In this document: positions 80-53,172 of the stretch, piece by piece
How the letters are laid out: every line of letters starts with the position of its first letter
How positions within the stretch are numbered: position 1 is the first letter of the stretch
NCBI GenBank assembly: GCA_963845755.1
Contig: CAWJTV010000013.1
Span: 256,001 to 320,000 of the forward strand
DNA length: 64,000 bases
Source: an uncultured Planctomycetota bacterium
Lineage (GTDB): Bacteria; Planctomycetota; Planctomycetia; Isosphaerales; Isosphaeraceae
Direction: 5' to 3'
Notes under the pieces: generated by a model
The model's database searches: none
What the model saw: the letters and a program-made list of their open reading frames with translations, nothing else
What the model was told of the DNA's origin: nothing
Position numbers and translations under genes: made by a program

Positions 80-2097
80 GTGATGGGTACGCTCGACGCG
101 ATTCAGGGGCTATCGGATGGGGAGTTCCACAGGCTTGGAGACGACCTTCTACGGAAGCTCGACGCCCGATACCGGCGGCTCCGCACACACGGCCTCAATG
201 ACCGTGGAGAGAGCATCAAGGGGCAGCCGGATTCCTATGTCGGTGACACGGCTACGACGTGTAGTGTGGCGGTCTGCTATACCGTAGAAAAAAAGGGGTG
301 GTGGACCAAGGTCGTAGACGACGTTCGTGAAGCCGTCGCTGTTTCGCCGATGGTCAAAGAGATCGTTGTGGTCATCCCGCACAACGCCGACCGGGACGGA
401 CCGAAGGTTAAGAGCATCGACTGGCTCTCAAACGCACGTACGGCGGCCGGGACGGCGAGTCTCCGTGTGATCGACGGGCGGGAGATCAGCCGAGAACTGG
501 ACACAGACCACCAGGACCTTCGTTACATACATCTCGGGATTCCCTATTCTCGTCTCTCCGGCCAGAGCATCCTCGCCGGTTGCCAGGCCGCATCCCTGAA
601 GGTCATCGATTCGATCAAGGCGAGTGGTCGATACGACCCCGGTCGTTATGTCCCGAGGTCCGCCGACGGGGAATTGTACAGGCTCTGGCAGGCGGCCGCC
701 CGACACGGTTTCGACAACGAGCGACGAGTCGGCCCCGTCCGGTTGATTGCTCTGGTAAGTGATTCCGGCCTCGGGAAGACTAGCCTCATGTGCGAGTTTA
801 CCCTCAAGCTCGGGCGGGTGCTCCCGGTGTTGCTCGTCCAGGCTCGGGATCTGCTGCTCGGGACCGAGAACAGCCTGGTCGCCCACGCGGTCCATGACAT
901 CCAGGGCTTTCTCGACCCGGCCGCACGAGTAAACGAGGAAGCCGCCCTGTGCAAACACCTGTCTGGCTCCGTGTCGCTTACCGTCGTCCTGGATGGGCTG
1001 GATGAGGCGCACCACCCGGATGCCATCAGAAGAATGATCTCGAACTGGTTGGGGTCCAGGCTGGGTCAATCCAGCATCTTGATAGTCACTTCACGGCGGG
1101 AGTTCTGGAGGACATGTGTAGACCGCTCCTGGGAGCGATGGATGCCGTCCACGACCCATGAAGACCGCTTATCCATCAAGATTGCCGAACCTATGCAGTC
1201 CGAGCGGAGCGATCCAGTCGCCGGCATCCGGCTACCGGACCGATTCACTGATGACGAACTCGATGCAGCCTGGTTACGGGCGGCCCAGCCTCGGCAGGAA
1301 TTGTTCGCATTTTCAGACGAAGTCAGGGCGGAACTTCGCCACCCGTTCACGCTCCGGGTGTTCCTCGACCTCCGCAGCAAAGGCGACCCTCTGCCCGGAC
1401 CCTGACGAGGGCGGCTCTCCTCGAGTGCTGGTTGGACCGCCGGCTCGCCGCCGAGGCAGAGGCGATGCCGAGGGAGCGGATCACCCGCAGCCACTTCCAG
1501 CAAGCGCTCCGTGTCGTGGCGCGTCGCCTCGCCGATGCGAACTCGGGCTCCGTGTCCGTTGACGAGTTGACGGGAGTTCCTTACTTCAATCCAGCCAAGC
1601 CGCCTGGGCTGGTTGTTCAACGCCTAATCGAGGCCAGCATCCTGGAAAGTCTACCAGGCCGACCGGATCGGGTCCGTTTCTCCGTCGAGGCGGTCCAGGA
1701 TTACTACCAGGCGGAGGTGGACATCGAGGAGATCAAGGCTGATCCCAGTCGGATGGCGGAGGTCTATTCACGCCTCCAGTTCACAACGGCCTATCTCAGG
1801 CTGCTGCGGATCGGGCACAGCCAGGTCGGCGGGGGGGACCTGGACGAGTTTGCCCGTCGCCTGGCGGAGTTGAATGCCTGGATGGCAGCCGTCGTATTGC
1901 GGCCGGCCCCCCACCGATTCTCCCCGGACATCAGGGCGAGGATCGCCGACGAACTCGGTCAGCAGATATCGTCGCGTCACCGTGCCCGGGCAGCGATGGC
2001 GATAACTATGCTCGGAGAGGTTGATTGTCAGGAATCCGCCGAGACTTTGGCGGCTCACCTTCTCCCGCCGTCCGACGCTCATCCCGATTTTAAACGC
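80..2097 (+). CDS. 5' part of interrupted STAND/NACHT-like NTPase with N-terminal restriction-endonuclease-like domain (frameshift at ~1400, then split by RIT insertion)
   Basis: Walker A SDSGLGKTS, Walker B VVLDGLDE, sensor-like ILIVTSR, ELRHPFTLR. N-terminal EFHRLGDDLL...KGQPDSY pattern. ORF 80-1405 continues into 1432-2178 through a 1-nt shift and turns to non-coding-like sequence after HPDFKR (2097). Confidence 0.8.
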
Positions 2098-2178
2098 TTA
2101 TGTTGTCGCTCTCGTTATGTGGCAGCTACCCGCTTTTTCCGAGGACCTCAGGCCGTGGCCAGCGCAGACACCACATAA
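2098..2178 (+). repeat. RIT left end (two 8-bp core sites 9 bp apart plus an inverted internal site)
   Basis: ttatgttg tcgctctcg ttatgtgg ... ccacataa; inverted counterpart at 9116-9197. Confidence 0.8.
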
Positions 2179-2319
2179 GTTCGCATGCTGTCACGCCAAC
2201 TCATGCAAGGACTCGCGATCGCGGTTTTACCGGAAACCCTGGCCCCTCCTTGGTTCGTTATTGGCCCTTCGCTGCACTGGCTTGGGCGGGGCGGGCCGGC
2301 TTCGCCGGACCTGCTGCCG

Positions 2320-2566
2320 ATGGCAGTTGGTATTTGAGCAGTTGGAGCCGCTCGTCGATGGACCGTGCCAGGCCGAGCTAGCGGTCAAGCATCTGGATGG
2401 CGCCGATGCCACCGCAGGCGATGCCCCGAGTCTTCGCGGCGCCCTCGTAATGAATGTTGGAGGCGGTGAAGACTAGCTCGGGCGAACGGGCGGTGACCAG
2501 CCTGTCGAGCCGCAGGCAGATTTTCCGCTTGCCGACGGCGTGGTGGCGGTGTGGAATCGTATTCAC
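2320..2566 (-). pseudogene. IS1380-family transposase N-terminal remnant
   Basis: RKICLRLD...VFTASNIHYEGAAKTRGIACGGIGAIQMLDR*LGLARSIDERLQLLK resembles N-termini of planctomycete IS1380 transposases as I recall them; internal stop. Confidence 0.6.
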
Positions 2567-2740
2567 TCGAAGCCTCCTTGTAGGTTCGGCTGTGGGATCG
2601 GTGTAGGTCGGTCTAATGTGCTGGAAACGCCGGGAGATCACGAGTTTTTCACTGGTTGCCCGGACGCGACCGGCCACCCCAATCTCGCGAATGGCGCATG
2701 GAGGCGAAACCCCGTGGAGCAGGCCGAAGGTGCACCGGCC

Positions 2741-5541
2741 ATGAGCATCACATCCGACCTTGTCGAAGCGTACTCCCTCTGTCCAAGGAAAGCATTCCTG
2801 CTGATGACGGGGGCGACAACAGACCCCGGTCCGCACGCCTATGAACTGCTCATCCGAGAGCAGGCGGAGGCCAACCGCCAAGCCCACCACGTCCGCCTGG
2901 CGAATACCAATGAGGTCGTCATCGCCAGCGGCCCGGCCGACCTGACGGCGGGCCGGGATGTACTCGCGGACGCGGAACTGGCGATCAGCGGCCTCCAAGC
3001 CCACTTCGACTTTCTCGCGAAAGTGCACGAGCCCTTGCGGCGGGGACGGAGCTTCTACGAGCCGATGAGGGTCATCGGCACTTACAAAGCGTCAAGGACG
3101 GACGCCCTCGGCTTTGCCTACGAGGCTCTTGTCCTTGGCGAAGTGCAGGGGCGGAAGCCGGCCTCGGGCGCGCTGGCTCGGCTGGGCGGCCGCCTCTGCG
3201 AGGTGCAGTTCGCCAGCAGGTATAAAGAGGTGCGGCGGATCGTCGAGACGCTGCGGGCATGGGCAGCGCAACCCGCTGGTGAACACCCCGCCAGTGGTCG
3301 CTGAACAAGCACTGCCCGAGCTGCCCCTTCCGGGCCGCCTGCCTGAGCAGGCGGAGAAGGAAGACAATCTGAGCCTGCTGGACCGGATGACGCCGAAGTT
3401 GATGCGGAAGTATCACGACAAGGGCATCTTCACGGTCCGGCAACTGTCCCACATCTACAAGCCGAGGAGGAGCAGAAAGAAGGCCAGACGGCAGGCGCGG
3501 CACAACTTGGAGTTACAAGCTCTGGCAATCAGGACGGGGAAGGTCCATGTCGAGCACCTGCCCGACCTGCCACGCGGGTCCGTCGAGTTGTTCTTGGATC
3601 TCGAGGGTCTCCCGGACCGCGACTCGTACTATTTGGCCGGACTTCTCGTGTGCAGGGAGATGGCGAGGCCGAGTACGAGCCCTTCTGGGCCGATGACGAG
3701 AACAGACGAGGCCGCGATGTGGTCAGCCCTGGTCAATCGGTTGGAGACGTTCCCCGACGCCCCGATCTACCACTACGGCAACTACGAGAAGAAGGCGTTC
3801 GCCACGCTGACGAAGCGGCACGGCAAAGGCGGCGGGCTTGCTGAGCGCTTGGTCAACGTGGCATCGTCCGTGTACGGCAAAGTCTACTTCCCGGTGCGGT
3901 CGAACGGGCTGAAGCAACTGGGCAGGTTCCTGGGGGCCGTTTGGGCCGACCCGCAGGCATCGGGCTTGCAAAGCCTGGTCTGGCGGCACCGCTGGGAGAT
4001 CGACGCGGGACGAGGCGTTTAAGCGGTTCCTGCTCCAGTACAACTACGAGGATTGCGAGGCCGCTCGTCTGCTGGTCGAACGCTTGGACCAGATCAAGCG
4101 GGAGGCCGCGTCGGATCCGGTGATCGAATTCGCCAGCCGGCCGAAGCGACACGCGACCGAAACCGGAAAGGCACTCCACAGCCAGTTCGAGCAGATCTTG
4201 AAGTCCGCACAGATTGAATTCGCCGGTCAGGGAATCCGTATCGCGAGAGACAAGAGATATGGGGGAGCGAATGCCTGCGGAAGAAACGGAGCGCGCGAAA
4301 CGGACACCAGACTTACCGCCGGATCATGTCTAAAGGCCAGCCGGACTGTCTCCGTGGAACCGCGGCAGCAGATGCCCAAAGCACAATGTGGTGATCTCGT
4401 GCCGAAACCGAACAAGCTCGGCCGAGAGAACCGTCATCGACCTCGTGTTTTCCAAGAACGGTTGCCGGAAGACAATCACGCGGTACGTCGGGTCAATAGA
4501 GGTTACTGCCGATGTGATGCGGAGCCCTACAGACCAGAAGGATTTCGCGGCTGGCAACAAGGCCTTCGGGCACGGGTTCCAGGTCTGGGCCGTTTACCAA
4601 CGGATCGTGCTTCGGCTGCCCTACGCGATCATTGCTCAGGTCATGGAGCACTTCTTCGGCGTCGGCGCTCGGCATCATCCAGCATCATCGACTTCCTCGG
4701 GAACCTTGCCGGTTTCTACTCGGAAACCGAGGCCGCCCTTCTCCGGGCGATCCGGAAGAGCGACTTCGTCCACGTCGATGAAACCAAAATCAACATCGAG
4801 GGTGTGGCCCACTACGTTTGGGTGTTCACCGACGGGCAACACGTCGTGTTCCGTATGACGGAGACACGAGAGGCCGATATCGTTCGCGAGGTGCTGGCCG
4901 ACTACAAGGGCGTATTGGTCAGCGATTTTTACTCCGGCTACGACGGAATTCCGTGCCGTCAACAGAAGTGCCTCGTTCACCTCATCCGCGACATCAACGA
5001 CGACCTCTGGAAGGCTCCCTTCGAGAAGGAACTGGAGGCGTTCGTCCGTGGAGGTCCAGACCCTTCTCGTGCCGATCCTAGGAAGCAGTGGATCGCTTCG
5101 GATTGAAAACCCGGCACCTTCGGAAGTTCAACAAGGAAGTAGAACGATTCTACGAGAAGAACATTTCTGGAAGGGAGTACGCGTCGGAGTCAGTGCGAGA
5201 CATACCGAGAAGCGGTTCGACCGCTACCGGAACAACCTGTTCACCTTTCTAAACGAGGACGGAATCCCCTGGGAGAACAACATGGCGGAGAGGGCGATTC
5301 GGCAACTGGCCGTGCAGCGGAAGATCTCGGGATCGTTCTTCAAGCGGGTCGGTCCCGCACTACTTGCTGCTGCTGGCCATCTCGCAGACGTGCCGCTTCC
5401 AGGAGCAAGTCGTTCCTGAAGTTCCTGTTGTCGAAGGAGACCGACATGGATTCGTTTCGGCAGAGAAGGCTAGTCCGTTATTCCTACGCCGCCGGCAGCC
5501 AGAGGGTCATGCCGGAACCGCCACCAGGTCAGACAGTTTAA
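2741..5541 (+). CDS. TM0106/RecB-Cas4-like + RNase H-like DEDD exonuclease + IS66-family DDE transposase fusion (~930 aa, several frameshifts)
   Basis: CPRKAFL ... NKHCPSCPFRAAC (Fe-S staple); LFLDLEG, HYGNYE, SNGLK, LLQYNYEDC; VHVDETKI, LVSDFY, QQKCLVHLIRD, IPWENNMAERAIR. Assembled from overlapping ORFs 2540-3304, 3114-4022, 4084-5106, 4388-4858, 5048-5419, 5364-5744. Confidence 0.8.
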
Positions 5542-5840
5542 ACGAGCGAGGTCTGGGCATTGACAGCACCATGCATCGAGAAAACTACAGGGCATCCCGA
5601 GACGATGGTTTTCGGCGAGGCAGCTCACTCGAAACTACCCCTTTAACCTCAGAAGTGATTCGGAGTCCATTCCCCTGGTTTTCTGGACCAGAAGTGGCAG
5701 TCAACCATGTATCACAGCGAGCATCTCGCTTGTTTCAGGTCTAACTTGAAGGGAGTCCAATGGTGGCTCATGCCCCAGAAAAAGCTCGGAGAGCATGCAC
5801 AAAGATCTTCTCGGTCGCCATCAAGACGCGAACGAGACGC

Positions 5841-6856
5841 TTACAACGTCCGCAGGAATGCCATGACATCCTTCTGTTCACGCCAAGGTTTCCGATGCTC
5901 CTCGCCACCAACTTCGCAGTTCGCCAGGGCCTTGGCCTTCATTTCCAGATCTACTTCCGCATAGACGTTCGTCGTCTTTAGCGAGACGTGGCCGAGCCAG
6001 GCACGGATCGTGTTGATGTCCACCCCGGCACGCAGCAGGTGCATCGCCGTCGTGTGCCGGATCGTGTGCGGGCTGACGCGTTTGTTTGCCACCGACGGCA
6101 TCGTCGCTGCGACCACTTGCCGCGTATCGCTCCACCAGCGCATGAATTCCAAACCGCGTCAGCGGTTGGCCTCGACGGTTGAGGAAGACGGGTTCCTGAA
6201 GGGGCACGACCGCTCACCAAGGGAATCAACTCGTTGACTGTCCTGGCCCACAGCGGGCAGCGGCGTTGCTTGTTCCCCTTGCCGTGGATCAGGACCGATG
6301 AGGGATCTCGCTCCGGTGTCTGACCCAGGTCGAGGTCAGCGACCCGGACCTGGGCCGCCTCGTCCGCGCGAGCACCCGGTGTTGTAAAGGAACAGCAGCA
6401 GGGCGTGATCCCGCCGACTCTGGGCCTTGCTCGTATCCGGTGCCGCCAGCAGGGCGTCCATCTCCGCCTTCTCCAGGTAGCTCACCAACGGCCGGGGCGC
6501 TTTCTTGAACGGGATGGAACGGATTTCCCCGCACCACTGGACGTGTTCCGGGCTGCGCTGCACCGACGAAGTGCGCCAGGGAGCGGATCGCCGCCAGACG
6601 CTGATTGCGCGTCGCCGCGCCACAGCCCCGCTTCTCGCCCAGTTCGCCCAGGAAGGCCCGAACCCGGACGGCCGAGAGGTCCTCGACCTGGAGCCGGTCA
6701 ATCCCCTTGCGGACTCGCTGTGCGGCAAAGGGCAGGAGCAGCCGCAAGGTGTCGCGGTAGCTCCGCTGGGTGTTGCGCGCGAGGTTCCGCTCGGCGACGA
6801 GGTGCTCGAGCAGGAAAACGCCGCACCCACGGCCCGAGCAAGGCGGCGTCAGTCAT
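5841..6856 (-). CDS. ritC: Tyrosine recombinase RitC (frameshifted)
   Basis: ATRNQRLAAIRS, RDHALLLFLYNTG, SPHTIRHTTAMHLLRAGVDINTIRAWLGHVSLKTTNVYAE. Confidence 0.85.
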
Positions 6857-7802
6857 GGCTACCCTCCTTTCCCGCGTAGCACTCGAAGCGTCCATTGGCT
6901 TCCGCCAGCAACTCCGGCGTCATGCTCAGATAGACCTGCGTGGCGGCGAAGTAGACATGCCCCAGGTAGACCGACAGCTGGGGCAGCAACTTCTGCACAT
7001 CAACCCCCTGCCGATACCAGGACGTCAACCGGTGGACCGCGAAGGTGTGACGCAGGTCGTGCAGCCGCGGCTGGTAGCGCGCGCCGGCCTGCGCCGGACG
7101 CCGGAGTCCTCACAGACGCGACGGAAGCTATTCATCCATGGTGTCCTTGGCTCACTCGGATGCCATCGCGCATGGTGAAGAACGGAGCCTCTGCTGCGGG
7201 ACTCGGGATGGTGCCGCGCGGCGGCCGAGGTGTACTCGGCCAGGACGCCACCCAATTGCGGGCTGAAGGGGACCAGCCGGGTCTTGAAGAACTTCGTCGT
7301 GGCGGACCGTGAGCAGGGAATCTTCGCCAGATCGACGTCGTCGCGATTCAGGGCAAGCGCCTCGTGGAGACGCAGACCGGCCCCGTAGAACAGCAGGACG
7401 ACAGTGCGAATCGTGATCGGCTCCAGGCGGCTGCGTCGTCGCCGGTAGCAGTCCGTCGCTCGCACGAGGCGACGGATCTCGTCGTGCGTGTAGATGTACG
7501 GGACAAAAGGCGGGGGCCGTTGCGGCAGCACTACGGGCAGGGGCGACGCGGCAACGTAACCACGGGTGATGGCGTAGCGATAGAACCCGAGCAAGGCGGT
7601 GTACCTGATGTACCAGGCGCTGGTGATCGGCCCCTTCCCGTCCAGGAAGGCTTCGACTTGCTCCTGGCCCGGACGTCAGTGACAGTGGCAGACGCACCGA
7701 CGGCACGCCCGAAGGCCCGCAGGAACTGGCGTTGGTCTTGAACCGTTCCCCCAACATCTGGCGATAGGCAATGTAGCGTTCGATCAGTTCTTGCAGGTTC
7801 AT
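6849..7802 (-). CDS. ritB: Tyrosine recombinase RitB (frameshifted)
   Basis: MNLQELIERYIAYRQMLG, PYIYTHDEIRRL, LFYGAGLRLHEAL, TKFFKTRLVP, RLHDLRHTFAVHRLTSWYRQG...LSVYLGH. Confidence 0.85.
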
Positions 7803-9055
7803 AGCAACCCTCCGAGATCGAAGTCGGCAACCTGGCGGAGCCCGCGAGGTCCACCTTGGCGTAGACGCGCGTCGGTCTCCGGGTGGCGGTGGCCGAGGTG
7901 GTCGCCGATCTCCTTGAGTGATAGACCCTGTTTCAGGAGGTGAGTCGCGCAGGCATGGCGAAGGGCATGGGGGCCAAACCGAGCCAGGGAAGGACTCACA
8001 ACGCGCAGGCGTCGCGAGACGATCAGGTAGAGCGTACTTCGGTGCAGTGGGCGGAGTGGGGCATGACAACGTGCGAGGAAGACTTCGCGTAAGGCCGCGC
8101 GTGGCCGCACCTCCTTGAGGTAGCGGAGGATTGCCGCAGCCACGGATCGGGCCAGCGGATAGATCCGAGGCCGACCCGACTTAGAGAGCCGCACGGTAAA
8201 CACCTCCCCGCTCCCAGTCGAAGTCATCCAGCCGGAGTTGGACGACTTCGCTGGCGCGGAGGCCGTAGACGGACAGCAACAGGAGCAGGGCATGATCCCG
8301 GATGTCAACCGGCCGATCTCCCTGGGTCATCGCCAGTGCCCGCCGGACCTCGTCCCAGGTCGGACCGGTGGGAATGGTTTCCTGTCCGAAGACACGGGGG
8401 CCTTTGATGGCGGCTGCCAGTCCGGTGCGACACCAGCCGCGCCTTTCCGCATAGCGGAAAAAGGAGCGTAAGAAACCGGCACAGTCACGCACCGTGGAGC
8501 GGCAGTAGCGACCAGAAGCGACCTGCGCGGCAAGGGCATTGTCGATATGATCGACCGTAATTCCTTGGAGTGAGCCGTTGGTCGGGTTGAGACGGATGAG
8601 TATTATACCGAGGGCCAAGCAACGGCACTCAATGGTGGTGGGCGACAACCCCCTCTCGTTGCGGAGGTACTCGGCAAATGCCGCAATCTCTCCAGCGAAA
8701 GGAACAGGTGTGACAGGTACTGGCTTGAGTCGTCCCAGGAACCGAAGCCAGGCGATGGCGAAGGCGAGAATAAGGTGCGGGCGGTCCGGGCCCCGGCGAT
8801 CCTGCGCGGTCCGGGTTGCTGAGCCCAGAGGATTGCCGTCTGGCCAATCTCGTCGCGCGAGATGAGTTCATCTGTACGATCCGCCAAACGCAAGAGTCGA
8901 GCAATCACGAGCAGATAGTGGGCTCTGCACCGTAAGTCGGTGCGACGCATCCCGAGCTCGGCCAGATGAGCAAGGTAGCGGAGCCGCTCCTCGAGCAAGG
9001 GACCAGCGCGATGGAGTGCTACATAGCGGGGACGCTCGAATAGTTGGTCGAACAA
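7799..9055 (-). CDS. ritA: Tyrosine recombinase RitA (frameshifted)
   Basis: MFDQLFERP, RDHALLLLLSVYGLRASEV, GPHALRHACATHLLKQGLSLKEIGDHLGH, LRQVADFDLGGLL; stop overlaps the RitB start (ATGA). Confidence 0.85.
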
Positions 9056-9115
9056 AGTCGAAACTCCACGGGGGTAGTGAGAAAGGAATCACTTCGACTA
9101 TGGTAATGACGGAAT

Positions 9116-9229
9116 TTATGTGGTCTTCTTGCAAAGGCAAACCTGAGATTGGCCGAGAGTAGTGGCTGGCCGCCACATAATCAGGCACGTCACACAAGAG
9201 CTCTTATGTGGTCGACCACATAAGAGCTC
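9116..9229. repeat. RIT right end plus perfect 32-bp palindrome (9198-9229)
   Basis: gagctcttatgtggtcgaccacataagagctc equals its own reverse complement. Confidence 0.9.
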
Positions 9230-11032
9230 CTCGGAGCAGTGGCGTTTTCCAAACTCGGCTATGTGCCCGCAGCCGAATTCGTGTACCGATGGGAGATGTT
9301 CGGACTCTCAGGCCATGACATCTACATCTTCAAGAAACTCCTGGGAACCATCCGAGGGGCAAACCCAGACTTCCGCAAGACTCTTGCGGAGGTGGCACTC
9401 CAGAAGATCTCAAATCCCAGCGGCGCAGCCGAGCACCTAAAGGCCGTGGCCGTGCTTTCTTCTCTCGGCGATGACCGCCTCGTGGCACACCTGGAGGGCC
9501 GCCTCGCCGAGAACGGCCTGCTCGGTAGGTATGAAAACCATGCCCTGATCGCCCTGGGAACAGATGCAGCGGGGGCCTTGTTCGCCCGCTCCGTGATGGC
9601 GGTCGGGGCAAGGCTCGCCGGACTTCCTAACGACCATGCCAACCACGATGCCCGCAACAGGCTCATCTCCCTCGTCCGTTCTAATACATATGATACGCGT
9701 TACTTGCTAACTCCGGCTTTCGAACCGCATCTCAAAGCACTCATCAAGGCCGACAATCCAGATGTTTCGTGGCTTGCCAGTGCTCTGGCAAAGCGTGGCC
9801 TCATGGCATCGCTACTCTACTCGGCCGTCGTAGTAGGCGATCCGCCAGGCGAGTTGGATTTGCATCGCAACCAACAACGAGCCTGCGTCACCACTGACGT
9901 TTGGCTGGGATGGTGGCGGCAATCCACCGACTCCGGCTTGAGACGAAGACTGCTGGGCCTTCTCCCGCTTTGCCCGAGTGCCGAGGTTGAAAAGATCCTT
10001 ATCGAATGTCTCGATTCGGCCGAACTTCGTGGATCAGCCGCCCGAGAACTCGGAGACTACGGTGTTGTCCGTTCGGCGGCTGATCTGCGGGGAATACTGG
10101 CGGAAGAGATTACTGCGGGCGACCATTGGGGCAGGTACGGAGCGGTCCGTGCTTTGGGTGCCTTGCGAGACGAGGCCGCAGTGCCCCTCTTGGAGAAGAC
10201 CGCGGCAGAGTATCCACTCGACTGGATTGTAGGAGAAGCGGTGTCGAGCCTTGGCCTTATCGGCACTCCGGCGGCGGAATGTGCTTTGGACCGACTCCTT
10301 CAGTGTGGAAAGGCGGGAGAGTTTGAGGAGATGGTCCTCGAAGCCCTGTTATACTGCGGTTCCGCGCCAGCAGTTTCAATCGTTGTGAATCGCGCAAGAT
10401 CGAGAATGGATGGTCCCCGTTGGCTCTGCGATCGCCTCGTCGGGCTTAGCGACTTCCGTGGGTGGAGCCAAGGTGAATACTACACCGACATTTACACCGA
10501 CGAGTTGGTGGACTATCTGACGTCACATTACCAGACGGGCTCGCCAGGACAGGATTGGAAGTTGGGAGAAGCCTTTCGCCAGATCGACAGTCCGGCCGTC
10601 CGGACCTTGCTGCGGAAGTGGGCGGACCGACGAGGATCACCCCAAGATTCGTTGATGCGAGAGAACGGACGCCGACGAATATCCGATGTTTGCCTCGAGG
10701 AATTGAGGGACCGAGGCGATGAATCGGCTATCGATTTTACCCTTGATGGGCGAGCAGAGGATAAGGACAACATTTACGTCCTGGCGACAGCCGACCTCCT
10801 CCGCACATTCCCGGCTACGGCTGTCGCCGAGCGTTTACGCCTGCGGCTGGCCGCAGCGACGACTACATCGCAGGTTGTGCGAATGCTCTGTCTTCTCGGG
10901 AGATTTGGTGAAGCGGCCGATGTAGACCGGGCCAACCGTTTCCTGGACCATCCTGACGACCTGGTGGCGAGCGTTGCCTGTACGACTGTGCTCAGGCTGA
11001 GTGACCCGATGCTCCTACCGGACCGCTGGTGA
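9230..11032 (+). CDS. 3' part of interrupted STAND protein: HEAT/PBS-lyase repeat domain
   Basis: RGSAARELGDYG, YGAVRALGALRDEAAVPLL, GEAVSSLGLIG repeats; no RBS; in frame with the 5' part across the insertion. Confidence 0.8.
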   Translation, partial: LGAVAFSKLGYVPAAEFVYRWEMFGLSGHDIYIFKKLLGTIRGANPDFRKTLAEVALQKISNPSGAAEHLKAVAVLSSLGDDRLVAHLEGRLAENGLLGRYENHALIALGTDAAGALFARSVMAVGARLAGLPNDHANHDARNRLISLVRSNTYDTRYLLTPAFEPHLKALIKADNPDVSWLASALAKRGLMASLLYSAVVVGDPPGELDLHRNQQRACVTTDVWLGWWRQSTDSGLRRRLLGLLPLCPSAEVEKILIECLDSAELRGSAARELGDYGVVRSAADLRGILAEEITAGDHWGRYGAVRALGALRDEAAVPLLEKTAAEYPLDWIVGEAVSSLGLIGTPAAECALDRLLQCGKAGEFEEMVLEALLYCGSAPAVSIVVNRARSRMDGPRWLCDRLVGLSDFRGWSQGEYYTDIYTDELVDYLTSHYQTGSPGQDWKLGEAFRQIDSPAVRTLLRKWADRRGSPQDSLMRENGRRRISDVCLEELRDRGDESAIDFTLDGRAEDKDNIYVLATADLLRTFPATAVAERLRLRLAAATTTSQVVRMLCLLGRFGEAADVDRANRFLDHPDDLVASVACTTVLRLSDPMLLPDRW

Positions 11033-11297
11033 GATATGTAAGGTTGCAGATCGCCCCCATCGAACGCGCCGTTTGAAGAATATCAGGTAGGGGCAGGTCG
11101 AATGGACGCCTCTCGGAGGTCCTCGAACATTCGAGATCGACTACGTGAAGGACAACGCGCTGGAGGGGTATTGCTGAGAAACGACCAAACTCCACAGGAC
11201 GACGGTCGGCAAGGCGACCGTGGCGCGGTGGAAAAGACGGGTTGGCTCGCTGCAGTTGCCTCGGGTGCTCTCGCGGGTTGGGTGCGCCCGAGGAAGA

Positions 11298-11344
11298 CCC
11301 CTCACCCGCCCTTCGGGCACCCTCTCGCCCTGCGGGGGCAAGGG
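11298..11344 (+). repeat. REP-like palindromic intergenic element
   Basis: cccctcacc-cgccc-ttcg-ggca-ccctctcgccc...aggg; stem-loop with TTCG loop typical of REP/RIME-like repeats; single copy in window. Confidence 0.5.
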
Positions 11345-11362
11345 ATTGGAACACGCCGCACT

Positions 11363-11656
11363 TCAAGAAGCGATCACGTACCTCGAGGCGGATTGCGGGG
11401 GTCGAGGGCGCCTCGTGGATGTTGGACAGCCGGGGCCTGAGCCGCACGGACGAAGCGAGGGTACGAGGTGGCCCTCGACGAGCTTGATGAGCTTATCGAG
11501 GTCCGTCTTCTTCTTCAAACCCAGTGCCGTGCGGAGGCCGACGGGCTCATGGAGGGCGTGCTCGTAGAACGCCTCGGCGGTGGCGATGCCGTAGCGACTC
11601 TCGAGGAGCTGGGCACTCTCCGCTGGGAAGGTCGGGATTTCGTCGAGGTATTTCAC
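11363..11656 (-). CDS. Small hypothetical protein, possibly frameshifted at the 3' end
   Basis: VKYLDEIPTFPAESAQLLESRYGIATAEAFYEH... has protein-like composition and GC3-rich codons. Confidence 0.45.
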   Translation of the reverse strand: MKYLDEIPTFPAESAQLLESRYGIATAEAFYEHALHEPVGLRTALGLKKKTDLDKLIKLVEGHLVPSLRPCGSGPGCPTSTRRPRPPQSASRYVIAS

Positions 11657-11900
11657 GGGCCTGGCTCTTGGGGATGAATGTCCCATCCTGCATTGTATGA
11701 CTTGCCCCCCTCTGCGTCACCCACACCGATTCGCTTCACGCTGAACCGGCGTGGCTGGTCGTTGGGGTTCGGTGGGCCGGTCGTCGGCCTGCCCGCCGAT
11801 TCCGTGAGCGCTCTGGCAAATCCGGGGGTTCGTGGGGACAATCGACGCTCACGAACGGTCGGAGACCTGGAACGCACTCCAATTCCCGAAGGCCCGCGAG

Positions 11901-17266: not shown

Positions 17267-18528
17267 CAGGGCTCTTCACTTTTTGAAGATACCCAGTTTG
17301 GTGAAGAGCCTTCCGACCTGAGAAGCGTTCCGCCGTATGGTCTCGGCAATATTCGTCGCGCCGGTGGCCCGGAGGAAGCCAATCGCCGCATTGCGCAGAG
17401 CGGCCATGATCTCGGGACCGCAGCCCTTGCGGATGCGACTCGCGTCCTCCCCGAGAGTCACATCGCGCACGTAATGCGACCGATTCTCGATCGACCAGTG
17501 GCCTCGTGCCCACGTCAGCAAGACACCGGCATCGGCCAGCTCCCGCGGGGCGCTGGTGAGGAAATAGCGGGTCTCTTGGGTCGTCTTGCCGTCCTGCTCG
17601 ACCACACTCTCAATCTGGCCGACCTGAGCGACACCGGGCCAATCCAGATACCCGTTCAACGCCGTCGTCGCCTTCAAGGTCCGCCGTTCGCGACGACCAT
17701 GCCCCTTGTCGAGGGTCGTCGCTGTGTCTTGCGTATCGGCCCAGATTTGTCGCTGTTTAGGGGGAAAAAGCCGCTTCGATGGAAGCGGCGAAGGCCATCT
17801 GAATATCGTGGAGTAGCGTCGGTTGGTTCTCTTTGACGAACCACAGATAGTGGCCCTGGGCATCAATCACCTGTTGAGACAGATCGCGTTGGCAGAACAT
17901 GGCGTCGCCGGTGACCAGGCGCCCTTTGAGAACGAGGTCTTGGAGCAACCGGAGGGCGGTCTTGTGCTCGTTGGTCTTGTTCTCGCTGCCCTGAGCGACG
18001 GGAGTCTGGGCCAGCGTGAGCCCTGATTGATGAGCCACCAGGGAGAGCAGATGCACCGCCTTCTCCAGGCCGTCGAAGCTACCACGAGCCGTCTTGCCGT
18101 CCACGGCGAACGCCTCCAGTGGTGTCGGCGGGGTCGAGGTCGCCCCGCCCAGTAACGATTCCGCCCACCGCGTCAGCGCGTCCTCAAAGGCTTTCGGGCT
18201 CAGGGCAATCAAAACCTTGCGGATGCCGCCGAGTTTCGGCGGTGTGCGTGTGAAGCCGAGTTGGTGCATCAGGGCGATGTCTTGGTCGTGTCCCCATTGA
18301 GCGATCGCGGCGTAACTCTTGGCGCCGCACATGATAGCGCAACAGACCAATCCGAGGATGGCCGTCAGGGGATGTCGGCGGCCTCGGCGGCTGCGCGGAT
18401 CGGGGACAGCGGCCAGAAAGGAGAGAAGACTCCCGGCGGTGTGGGCTTCCATGCGAGACCTCCCTGTGGAAAAACGCGGTGGTGCACGGTCTCCTTATCG
18501 ACGAAACCTTCTCGTACCCGCCCACCCG
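17267..18528 (-). mobile_element. ISAs1-family IS (transposase in two ORFs, 17757-18452 and 17276-17866)
   Basis: VPDPRSRRGRRHPL, AVDGKTARGS, VTGDAMFCQR, VKENQPTL, DKGHGRRERR, RGHWSIENRSHYVRDVTLGED; CAGGG end; flanking direct repeat cccgcaggccccgc. Confidence 0.88.
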
Positions 18529-37383: not shown

Positions 37384-37557
37384 GCGGCCGTATCGACATC
37401 TTGCCACGAAATCGAGCGGCTTGATCGAAGGTGTGACGCAGCCGGCAGTCATAGGGACTCCGCTTCCCTCGGGCTTGAGAGCCGCCCGGCGGGACTCCCA
37501 GTAGTGGGCGCGGGCGATCACGGGCTCGTCGAGACTCTCGATTCGATCGGTATCAAG

Positions 37558-38773
37558 ATGAAAATCGGCCTCCATTCAACTGGATATCCAGGATTGACGC
37601 CCGCCGGGGGGGTCGCGACATACACCCGCGAGCTGGCCCACGGCCTCTGCGAGCTCGGGCACGAAGTCCACGTCTTGATCTCGGGTGAACCCGTCGAGCC
37701 GGCCCGCGACGGCCCAGTCTGGGTTCATAAGACCCGTAGTGACTACTTCCCGATCGTTGAGCGGATCCTCCCCGGCTCGGGGGCCTGTTATTACATTGGC
37801 GCGACGATGAGGCGACTCGCGACCGAGTATGGGCTCGACATCGTTGAGTTCCCGAACTGGGAGGGAGTCGGCCTCTGGTATGCCCTGCGGCGTCCTACCC
37901 CCTTGATTGTCAGGCTCTACACCTCCTCCATCGAGGCGGGCCAGATCAACGGGACCAGCGGCGACCGTTCCATACGCTGGGACGTCTCTCGGGAGCGGTG
38001 GCTGTCCTTGATGGCGGATACGTTGGTGACACACTCGCAAGCCCATCGCCAATTCATGGCGGAGGAGCTGGCGATTGACAGCGGGCGAATTGCGGTCGTG
38101 CCCCTCGGTGTCATCGTGGACCGGGGATTTCGACGGGCGCCGCGGCAGGGAACCGATCTGACGGTGGTCTATCTCGGCCGATTGGAGAACCGCAAAGGCA
38201 CCATAGATCTCCTGCGAGCGGCGCCGGAGGTTCTACGCGAGGTTCCGGAAGCCGCGGTTCGTCCTCATTGGAGCCGATCGACCGCACTGTCCTGGAGGGC
38301 GGACACACGCACGGTACCTCGAGGAGGAGTTTCCCTCGGAGGTTCGCAGCCGGATCACGCTCACTGGCCCATTGCCGAACGCGGACGTGGATCGCTGGTT
38401 GCAGACCGCCGACCTGCTCGTGGCGCCCTCCCTGTATGAGTCGTTTGGGCTCATGTTTCTGGAGGCGATGCGTTGGGGGACACCGGTCATCGGCACGACC
38501 GCAGGCGCCATCCCAGAGGTCGTCGAAGACGGGAAGTCCGGCGTGCTCGTGACGCCGGGCCGGCCGAGTGAGTTGTCCGGCGCGATCGTGGCACTGTTGC
38601 GTGACGAAGAGCGTCGCCGACGGCTAGGCGAGACCGGTCGCCGTCGTGTTGAAACCCTCTTTACCGTCGATCGAATGGCACGGCAGGTTGCAGATCTTTA
38701 TGCCTCGGCGATCGAAAAACGGGGACGCGTGAACTCTCGACCTTCGCCGTTGCTCCGCCGAACGGGTTGCTAA
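37558..38773 (+). CDS. GT4 glycosyltransferase (frameshift at ~38255)
   Basis: GGVATY, YLGRLENRKG, PSLYESFGLMFLEAM. Confidence 0.9.
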
Positions 38774-52018: not shown

Positions 52019-52154
52019 GTCCAATACCGTACTCTAAACGTCCGCCGTCGCGCGACGGCCCATATCATGAATGTCGTTGTACATCTACAGGTGTTATGAA
52101 GTTGTTTCCTGCCTGTGCAGAAGGCCTTCACCATCACGAGCGAGCTGAGGTATC

Positions 52155-53172
52155 ATGACAAGCCAGGTTTTCCTCCGCAAAGCCGACGTCGCCAACCCGC
52201 TGAGCACCGTGCGCGAACTCCTGAATGAATGTCGCTTCAGGGAGCTGATCGCCGGTGGAGCACGAGTCGTCATCAAGCCCAACCTCTGCACGGAGCGACT
52301 CGAGCAGCTCCACACCGCCAACACCTCGATCGGGGTCTTGCGTGCGGTCTGCGAAGTGGTGCGGGAGCAAACCGCGCGGATCACGATCGTCGAGTCGGAC
52401 GGGGCGCCGCTACCCGGCCGAGGCAGCCTTCGAAAACAATGGGGTCTATGCTTTGGCCGAGGAGTTGGGCCTGAAGGTCGTGAACCTCTCCAAGGATGAG
52501 CTGGTCGAGATTCCCGACCCGCGGCTCAAGGGGTTCGGCATGGCGCGGACCTGGCTGGAGGCCGACGCATTCGTGACCCTCCCCGTGCTCAAGACCCACG
52601 CGACGACCGTATTTACCGGCTGCTTGAAGAACCAATGGGGCTGCATCCCCCGGTACGATCGCATCCTGCTACACAAGTACCTGCACGAGTTGATCGGCCA
52701 GATCAACGCAATCCGACCTGTCACCCTGGCCCTGATGGACGGCCTCGTCGGGATGCAGGGCCGTGGCCCGATCAACGGCTATCCGATCAACCTGGGTGTC
52801 CTTCTCGCCAGTCGAGACCCCGTCGCCCTGGACGCCACGGCCATGCGCCTCATCGGGCTGGAGCCGGCGACGAGCCGACACGTCGTCCATGCCGAGCGGA
52901 TCGGCCTTGGGTGCTACTGCGAGACACAGATTGCTGTGGACGGGCCGTTCGCCGAGCTGCGAACGACCGTCGAGCCCGCGGTCGAGGACTGGGCGATCAA
53001 GCTCATGAACCAGGTCGCTCGGTCTCCCTTCATCACCAAGCACTTGCTGCTCAACGACCACGTCTTCTATCCGGTTCGACGCGCGGTCGGGCTCTGCGCC
53101 ATCTCGCAGGCCGCCATCGCACTTTCAAGAATCCGGCCGCTTACGGAACACTACCCAAATAGGACATCATGA
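52155..53172 (+). CDS. DUF362 domain protein (frameshift at ~52405)
   Basis: VVIKPNL, IVESDG, LPVLKTH....TGCLKNQWG, MDGLVGMQGRGP, ASRDPVALD. Confidence 0.88.

Follow-up and report, generated by a model that had tools for sequence, protein, structure and literature searches.

A recombinase-in-trio (RIT) element inserted precisely into a gene for a predicted Avs-like nuclease-NTPase-HEAT protein in an uncultured Isosphaeraceae bacterium

In a 64,000-nucleotide stretch of DNA from an uncultured Planctomycetota bacterium of the family Isosphaeraceae (assembly GCA_963845755.1, contig CAWJTV010000013.1, here C13, positions 256,001 to 320,000; the whole stretch is called the window below), a recombinase-in-trio (RIT) element with a fused cargo gene occupies 7,132 bp inside a gene of about 1,272 codons, whose product is predicted to resemble the Avs antiviral proteins. 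The window is part of a genome of 14.27 Mb in 49 contigs, with a completeness of 87.9%. A first-pass annotation, made from the letters of the DNA, had recognized a RIT insertion at this place and had raised the idea that its excision could switch the gene on; the identity of the element and its precise placement are borne out by the recombinase trio and by 35 colinear homologues of the interrupted gene. The reading that we hold to be probable is a plain one: an ordinary, recent and precise RIT insertion that knocked out an accessory gene.

Insertion site and exact boundaries

Three open frames on the plus strand, at 80-1405, 1432-2178 and 9239-11032, are parts of one gene (Table 1). When longer proteins were searched with the 3' piece, 35 full-length homologues of 1,205-1,279 amino acids were found to cover it, and tblastn with three homologues placed residues 1-438 at 83-1396, residues 433-663 at 1378-2076 and residues 671-1271 at 9230-11029; the seven residues between 663 and 671 correspond to exactly 21 bases, 2077-2097. 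The left flank reads cat ccc gat ttt aaa cgc (HPDFKR) up to 2097 and the right flank ctc gga gca gtg gcg ttt (LGAVAF) from 9230, both as given in the first-pass annotation. When the read-through is aligned with the 35 homologues together, the joint 2097/9230 is gap-free, with HPDFKR/LGAVAF in the window against H-x-[YH]-L-K-x/[LV]-G-A-x-A-F in the homologues. The check that the annotation had proposed, a comparison with uninterrupted homologues spanning the junction, thus gave 35 colinear homologues out of 35 and not a single gap, and its claim that removal of the element yields an in-frame protein, here of about 1,272 residues, holds against the same 35 sequences.

The alignment also tells apart the two 6-bp words that border the element. 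At position -2 of the joint, counted from the alignment, the homologues carry Lys in 27 of 35 cases and Glu in none, and we therefore assign AAACGC to the target DNA and GAGCTC to the insert. The limits of the insert are ambiguous by one base, since 2097 and 9229 are both C. No target duplication is seen when the junctions are compared with the homologues: one native and one imported 6-mer flank the element, as at Tn916- or Tn554-like junctions, and the coupling sequences of Tn916 produce this same pattern. Mapping of the end sites agrees with the earlier description of outermost core sites each bordered by a 6-mer (aaacgc on the left, gagctc on the right), and the homologue alignment upholds both the unequal nature of these words, one native and one brought in, and the absence of a duplication.

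Table 1. Coordinates of the interrupted gene, the inserted element and their parts in the window.
Feature	Position	Strand	Remarks
5' part of split gene, residues 1-670 of ~1,272	83..2097	+	One frameshift, 1392-1398
Predicted PD-(D/E)XK nuclease domain of split gene	about 83-550	+	Structure model
NACHT-like P-loop NTPase of split gene	743-1114	+	Pfam stretch; helical region after it
Native target 6-mer AAACGC (codons Lys-Arg)	2092..2097	+	Adjoins left end of element; homologue alignment
Inserted DNA, 7,132 bp	2098..9229	.	RIT, cargo gene, end palindrome and one carried 6-mer; tblastn, alignment
Left end module	2098..2178	+	Outer TTATGTTG 2098-2105, inner TTATGTGG 2115-2122, inverted CCACATAA 2171-2178
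Fused cargo gene (RecB/TM0106-like nuclease, RNase_H_2 exonuclease-like, IS66-type DDE transposase)	2747..5463	+	
ritC	5844..6856	-	Covers 331-aa reference end to end; 5 frameshifts, 0 stops; R / HxxR / Y motifs
ritB	6873..7802	-	5 frameshifts, 0 stops; catalytic motifs present
ritA	7805..9055	-	4 frameshifts, 0 stops; catalytic motifs present
Right end module, mirror of left	9116..9197	-	TTATGTGG 9116-9123, inner CCACATAA 9173-9180, outer TCACACAA 9190-9197
Perfect 32-bp palindrome, right end, outside inverted repeat	9198..9229		GAGCTC 9198-9203; 20-bp core TTATGTGG-TCGA-CCACATAA 9204-9223; GAGCTC 9224-9229 (word carried by element)
3' part of split gene, homologue residues 671-1271	9230..11032	+	No frameshift, no internal stop
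HEAT repeats of split gene	10112-10303	+	Pfam stretch

The interrupted gene

The N-terminal 208 residues, modelled with 35 homologues (pLDDT, the predicted local distance difference test, 85.6), adopt a PD-(D/E)XK restriction-nuclease fold in the model, and the eight best VIA matches to this model are all PD-(D/E)XK-type nuclease domains. They are headed by LlaBIII (Z 9.3, root-mean-square deviation (rmsd) 3.4, 125 aligned) and by residues 2-203 of Avs4 (PDB 8dgf; Z 9.1, rmsd 5.3, 158 aligned), with R.BspD6I, AF1548, AspBHI, MspJI, N.BspD6I and FokI as further matches; in Foldseek the top match of the same domain was EcoT38I with an E of 3.7e-3, and none was found at or below 0.001. The Pfam NACHT match of the window piece is weak (22 bits, under the cut-off of 26.7), and two of the four homologues scanned pass that cut-off (27.0 and 32.2 bits). 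A model of the NTPase domain (pLDDT 73.9) matched ORC/Cdc6, p97 and plant NB-ARC about equally, and a profile search of the split gene against solved structures returned HEAT and alphaRep matches only. According to these models, the gene is built as a nuclease, an AAA+/STAND-type NTPase and HEAT repeats, like an Avs protein; the three parts of such a build, effector, NTPase and repeat sensor, are represented by the nuclease fold, the P-loop domain and the HEAT repeats, respectively.

The designation 'STAND defence protein', used in the first-pass annotation, is therefore sustained as to the domain plan and is not matched by known defence models: PADLOC gave no match for the window pieces of the split gene and 14 neighbouring open reading frames (ORFs), and for the homologues only weak WGR_XIII matches on the HEAT region, in three of four. 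Defence-type Pfam families were absent among the neighbours of the intact homologue in one relative (G016), and no defence neighbours were seen by Pfam and PADLOC around the split gene in the window. Judged by its architecture, the gene may have a role in defence.

Its distribution is patchy. We found it in three of the 61 genomes searched, the source genome included, and did not find it in a genome of the same genus (G001, 87% complete); two of its homologues are named as proteins from metagenome-assembled genomes (MAGs) of Planctomyces and Isosphaeraceae, the nearest homologue is 67-75% identical and no paralogue was found in the source genome. The interrupted 5' part reads 27 codons into the element up to a stop at 2176-2178, and the 3' part has a GTG start nine bases past the junction (9239). 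Going by these frames, the locus could in principle still yield a truncated nuclease-NTPase that lacks the sensor, or a HEAT fragment on its own.

The inserted element

Three consecutive, abutting tyrosine-recombinase genes lie on one strand of the element, as in other RITs. They are colinear with residues 1-415 (ritA), 1-305 (ritB) and 1-331 (ritC) of the annotated trio on a Mesorhizobium huakuii plasmid, which we used as the frame reference; the RITs of two relatives (G001 and G008) were rejected for this purpose, as they carry frameshifts of their own. After frame correction, each recombinase keeps the catalytic Arg, the His-x-x-Arg and the Tyr (e.g. HTIRHTTAMHLL ... VYAEV in RitC). As assembled, the recombinase genes are not open and uninterrupted, with 14 frameshifts over the three of them.

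The ends of the element are built around an 8-bp site, TTATGTGG/CCACATAA, which is present three times per end with mirrored spacing (starting at 2098, 2115 and 2171 on the left, and at 9116, 9173 and 9190 on the right) and which we also found in the Mesorhizobium reference and in four relatives. Outermost among the 8-bp sites are TTATGTTG on the left (2098) and CCACATAA on the right (9216-9223). The two modules form a terminal inverted repeat by their mirrored arrangement, yet the outer 39 nt are identical at only 23 of 39 positions. Published accounts describe RIT ends as 34-bp terminal repeats, as in the archetype from Cupriavidus metallidurans CH34 (PMC10214605), and as imperfect palindromic ends of 47-51 bp (PMC10214605; PMC5737581).

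The cargo gene aligns with residues 7-910 of a 911-residue Calothrix plasmid protein, and the same fusion occurs on an Acaryochloris plasmid; in the source assembly it has 17 frameshifts and no stop. What looks like a RecB-like gene and an IS66 transposase is one fused gene, as the colinearity with the Calothrix protein indicates. The same fused gene adjoins a RIT in another relative (L028, G014:C5, 11963-14693) and a partial RIT on contig C40 of the source genome (72397-77703). In all, it stands beside RIT recombinase genes three times, and in two cyanobacterial plasmids tyrosine recombinases are located nearby. To judge by these associations, a subgroup of RITs may regularly carry this gene, as a passenger or a helper. 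A check for a nested insertion sequence (IS) found one shared 10-mer around the fused gene and no 24-base window with at least 19 matches; since no inverted repeats of its own were found, we treat the gene as cargo, and IS ends could have been missed by this check.

The source genome holds a second RIT, on contig C6 (L029, about 3722-11720), with 68% DNA identity, a trio with two frameshifts, about 4 kb of different cargo and a palindrome (TAATGTGG-TCTA-CCACATTA) that resembles the one described above. Its sites, too, are similar to those of the window element, on which it could act in trans.

Related RITs and the proposed crossover

We searched the 20-bp palindrome core of the right end in a genome collection and recovered 46 loci, from Acidobacteriota, Planctomycetota, Pseudomonadota and others. 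Palindrome occurrences number 50 with the window, and in 41 of them a RIT end adjoins at the expected offset; the 39 ends that are left after removal of duplicates share one plan, namely inner site, 9 nt, outer site, 6 nt (X), 20-bp palindrome, 6 nt (Y) and flank. In 13 of the 39 ends, X and Y are reverse complements of each other; the window end is one of them, the GAGCTC at its right junction being the reverse complement of X. The rit gene next to the palindrome is ritA in 14 rows and ritC in 12, whereas 13 further rows show no rit match in the searched stretch, and two elements (L052 and L081) have the palindrome at both ends. Nine occurrences lack the end plan, and four of these (L044, L049, L058 and L083) are without a rit gene in the fetched flanks, which suggests that such palindromes exist on their own as scars.

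Sixteen elements with a single palindrome, including that of the window, were delimited at both ends and measure 3,402-7,132 bp; the window element is the longest (7,132 bp versus 3,402-4,773 bp). The 6-mer that precedes the left outer site equals Y in seven of the 16 and differs from it in nine, and the unequal pairs are identical at 33 of 54 positions, versus 0.30 in a shuffled control (p 2e-6). These figures fit a 6-bp overlap that would tolerate mismatches. At SE and Tn554 junctions, too, a 6-bp word from elsewhere is found on one side and the native word on the other (PMC10214605).

As to targets, a YhcG/DUF1016 PD-(D/E)XK nuclease domain is cut at the same place by two RITs (profile positions 2-76/77-157 and 2-75/77-156), one from a Terriglobia MAG and one from an Isosphaeraceae MAG (L066 and L076), and in both the domain is restored by removing the element together with one 6-mer; to judge by these two cases, the coincidence suggests homing to a conserved coding motif. 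Other RITs were found in a large serine recombinase, in two rve transposases and in a possible SNF2-like helicase (weak Pfam match). The right flanks of RITs show a weak G-W-A preference, which the window flanks do not follow.

On this basis, we propose that the RIT, with its fused exonuclease/IS66-type gene, would have integrated into the Avs-like gene by tyrosine-recombinase strand exchange, with the crossover in a 6-bp overlap that directly borders the outermost 8-bp recombinase sites on the outside. Such an overlap would work best with partial identity to the target. The unequal words would then have a simple origin, with the left junction keeping AAACGC of the target and the right junction the GAGCTC of the element, and nothing being duplicated; the gene, cut after codon 670, would be an accessory gene inactivated by plain insertion. 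The insertion would be recent, since the gene halves show no damage beyond the level of assembly errors.

Excision and gene restoration

The first-pass annotation had considered that the insertion could be a reversible switch for a toxic defence protein. In such a programmed or phase-variable switch, the RIT would excise and re-insert at a useful rate and so turn a potentially toxic Avs-like nuclease on and off. Genes restored by excision are a known phenomenon, as with the sigK skin element of Bacillus subtilis and the nifD element of Anabaena, and excision switches made by other integrated elements are documented as well (comK and hlb prophages, 'active lysogeny'). In the window, clean removal at the outer crossover restores the colinear frame in silico with either 6-mer (Lys-Arg or Glu-Leu), save for the frameshift near 1395, which is of error level; damage to the gene halves does not exceed assembly noise, the catalytic motifs are preserved in each of the three recombinases, which look functional once their frames are corrected, and the local excess of consensus errors described below would fit a minority insertion.

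Nevertheless, the switch is unsupported and we regard it as unlikely. None of the 35 homologues is interrupted, nor is the gene in either of the two relatives that carry it, so that no lineage keeps the element at this site, and neither an occupation of the site across the lineage nor a dedicated element was found. The annotation had also asked whether related RITs lie in similar genes, and a NACHT/HEAT or STAND-like target gene was found in none of the 15 other delimited RITs. The Pfam scan recognized no directionality factor or regulator in the element. A second crossover site with the same 6-mer, TCACACAA-GAGCTC-TTATGTGG at 9190-9211, could compete with the outer one, and an inner crossover there would leave a scar of 26 bp and an unrestored frame; scars of this kind are suggested by the four palindromes whose fetched flanks lack a rit gene. 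Finally, a restored frame follows from any precise insertion. This caveat, which had been raised along with the switch itself, is well founded: the joined flanks of 18 related RIT elements or ends give, in eight cases, a frame that is open for at least 80 codons on both sides.

We likewise give little credence to an unfixed insertion, in which most chromosomes would have the intact gene and a minority would carry the RIT, which would enter and leave precisely via the outer 6-bp crossover.

Frameshifts in the element and in the assembly

Frameshifts were counted by aligning clean reference proteins with the DNA, using a home-made frameshift-aware script (penalty 14). The element has 31 of them in 5.93 kb (14 in the rit genes and 17 in the cargo gene, or 5.2/kb); the split gene has one (1392-1398), where a base is missing from a C run with respect to the homologue frame, and no stop in 3.8 kb. 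Frameshifts in the rit genes and near 1400 had been pointed out in the first-pass annotation, according to which they would speak against the switch if they were real and no excision product were detectable. As written, that argument does not apply, because indel errors of the assembly affect even rpoB and rpoC. In rpoB (contig C34, 79366-83015), one frameshift, a single missing base, falls within a conserved motif, which we take to be universally conserved, with a stop directly after it, and rpoC (contig C34, 567489-571586) has two frameshifts and is spread over two frames in the source assembly. These two genes cannot be broken in a living cell, and the source assembly must therefore contain indel errors, which amount to about 0.41 frameshifts/kb (seven in 16.9 kb) in a control set made of rpoB, rpoC, the split gene, the second RIT of the genome (contig C6) and two other copies of the fused gene. 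At this level of assembly error, the frameshift near 1400 says nothing about decay.

The element exceeds the controls 13-fold (Poisson P 1e-23). It has no in-frame stop in about 1,950 aligned codons, and the frame-corrected Rit scores against an outgroup are within the range of the copies on contig C6 and in three relatives (G001, G008 and G012). We judge the rit frameshifts to be assembly errors because rpoB and rpoC are broken as well, there are no stops and there are no excess substitutions; taken together, the frameshifts of the element most likely arose as errors in the consensus of a long-read-type assembly.

The same counts bear on the possibility of an old, dead locus, in which gene and element would be true pseudogenes and the frameshifts real. 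The 31 frameshifts of the element against one in the gene, far above the control level in the element, would speak for it. However, no stop is present in about 1,950 element codons or in roughly 1,270 gene codons, the Rit scores against the outgroup equal those of other copies, rpoB and rpoC show the same kind of defect, and indel density differs about 20-fold between element and gene, though both would drift together. Under equal rates, at most one of 32 frameshift events in the split gene has a p of 2.7e-6; with the split gene nearly clean, the element therefore did not decay neutrally alongside a broken gene, and we find a dead locus improbable.

A poorly supported consensus fits the element better than old decay does, perhaps with few reads carrying the insertion. 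In that case fewer molecules would have carried the insert than the flanks, and the insertion would perhaps be present in only part of the sampled population. No near-identical clean copy was found for a check of the frames: a scan of metagenome contigs for the 32-bp palindrome gave two contigs, both with unrelated RITs that have only the end in common with the window element, and a 28-mer of the left flank had no match in the metagenome contigs.

Several points weigh against an ordinary recent insertion of an intact element. Its recency is argued from the absence of damage only, as substitution decay cannot be measured at the 67-75% identity of the nearest homologue, and the position of the crossover is inferred from the junction sequences. 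The 13-fold excess of frameshifts could also mean that the element is a truly decayed, non-autonomous copy, which the RIT of contig C6 would have mobilized in trans; close pairs of frameshifts in the script output may also be artefacts of divergent stretches.

Counter-defence or assembly artefact

Another explanation is that this RIT lineage homes to STAND or other defence genes and was selected for disabling host immunity. The target is built like an antiviral STAND protein, and a site preference is indeed seen among RITs of this family, which hit the YhcG nuclease domain at one and the same position in two phyla. However, none of the 15 other delimited relatives lies in a NACHT or HEAT gene, the window flanks deviate from the weak G-W-A preference on the right side, and the split gene has neither a PADLOC match nor defence neighbours, which makes counter-defence very unlikely. 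An assembly chimera, in which the assembler would have joined element and gene although this molecule does not exist, would suit an error-prone assembly and the lower consensus quality of the element region, but the two junctions coincide exactly with conserved RIT end structures and no part of the gene is missing, unlike in a chimera, and we hardly credit it. We thus retain an ordinary RIT insertion into an accessory gene as the probable explanation.

Genomic setting

Upstream of the split gene, the neighbours are of ordinary planctomycete types (PSCyt1, PSCyt2/PSD1 and DUF1501 by Pfam). Outside the element, the Pfam scan shows at least two further domains of the window that are split between frames: in the polysaccharide cluster, the domains of a GT4 glycosyltransferase (37384-38770) and of a DUF362 protein (52149-53169) are each divided over two frames, and these are probably further assembly errors. 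A truncated or frameshifted transposase of the IS4/ISAs1 type, with DDE_Tnp_1_assoc and the first half of DDE_Tnp_1, is encoded on the minus strand (17279-18494); it lies among ORFs that, over 9 kb (11-20 kb), gave no match in Pfam or PADLOC. GC content at third codon positions (GC3) was dropped as a filter for real genes, being too weak in the source genome.

Significance

The locus presents a known kind of element, the RIT, in a new kind of target. The empty site could be rebuilt to the base from 35 homologues, which helps to define where RITs cross over. RITs are common, and two reports state that their transposition has not been reproduced in the laboratory, that its mechanism is unknown and that movement and target specificity, or target choice, are untested (PMC10214605; PMC5737581); the insertion offers a substrate for an excision test. 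In assemblies such as this one, frameshifts do not show that a gene is a pseudogene, and where they accumulate locally the DNA may be carried by only part of a population. If the switch were true, the RIT would be a reversible on/off device for an Avs-like immune nuclease and the excess errors a trace of low read support. This would matter for bacterial immunity, and its support is no more than any precise insertion gives.

Comparison with known systems

As in Avs4 and bacterial NACHT proteins, the product of the split gene is predicted to combine an N-terminal Mrr-/FokI-type PD-(D/E)XK nuclease, a P-loop NTPase and a C-terminal repeat sensor; it differs from Avs proteins by the HEAT repeats of its sensor, the weak NACHT profile and the lack of a matching PADLOC model. 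The locus resembles the skin, nifD, comK and hlb systems in that a coding sequence is interrupted by an element which encodes its own recombinase and whose precise excision would restore the frame. Throughout a lineage, however, those elements are found at one and the same site, and their excision is regulated; the site in the split gene is empty in all other genomes seen.

With the archetypal RIT, the window element shares abutting ritA, ritB and ritC genes with catalytic tyrosines and inverted end repeats, and it differs in holding a 2.7-kb fused gene and, outside one inverted repeat, a 20-bp palindrome and a 6-mer. Tn554, SE, GInt and Tn916 are similar in transposing by tyrosine recombinases without target duplication and in bringing an imported 6-bp word to one junction. 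Unlike Tn554, SE and GInt, which use TnpABC or IntA/Tfp/IntB/Srap sets of recombinases, the element carries RitABC, and identical 6-mers at both junctions in seven of 16 RITs indicate that the overlap often matches the target.

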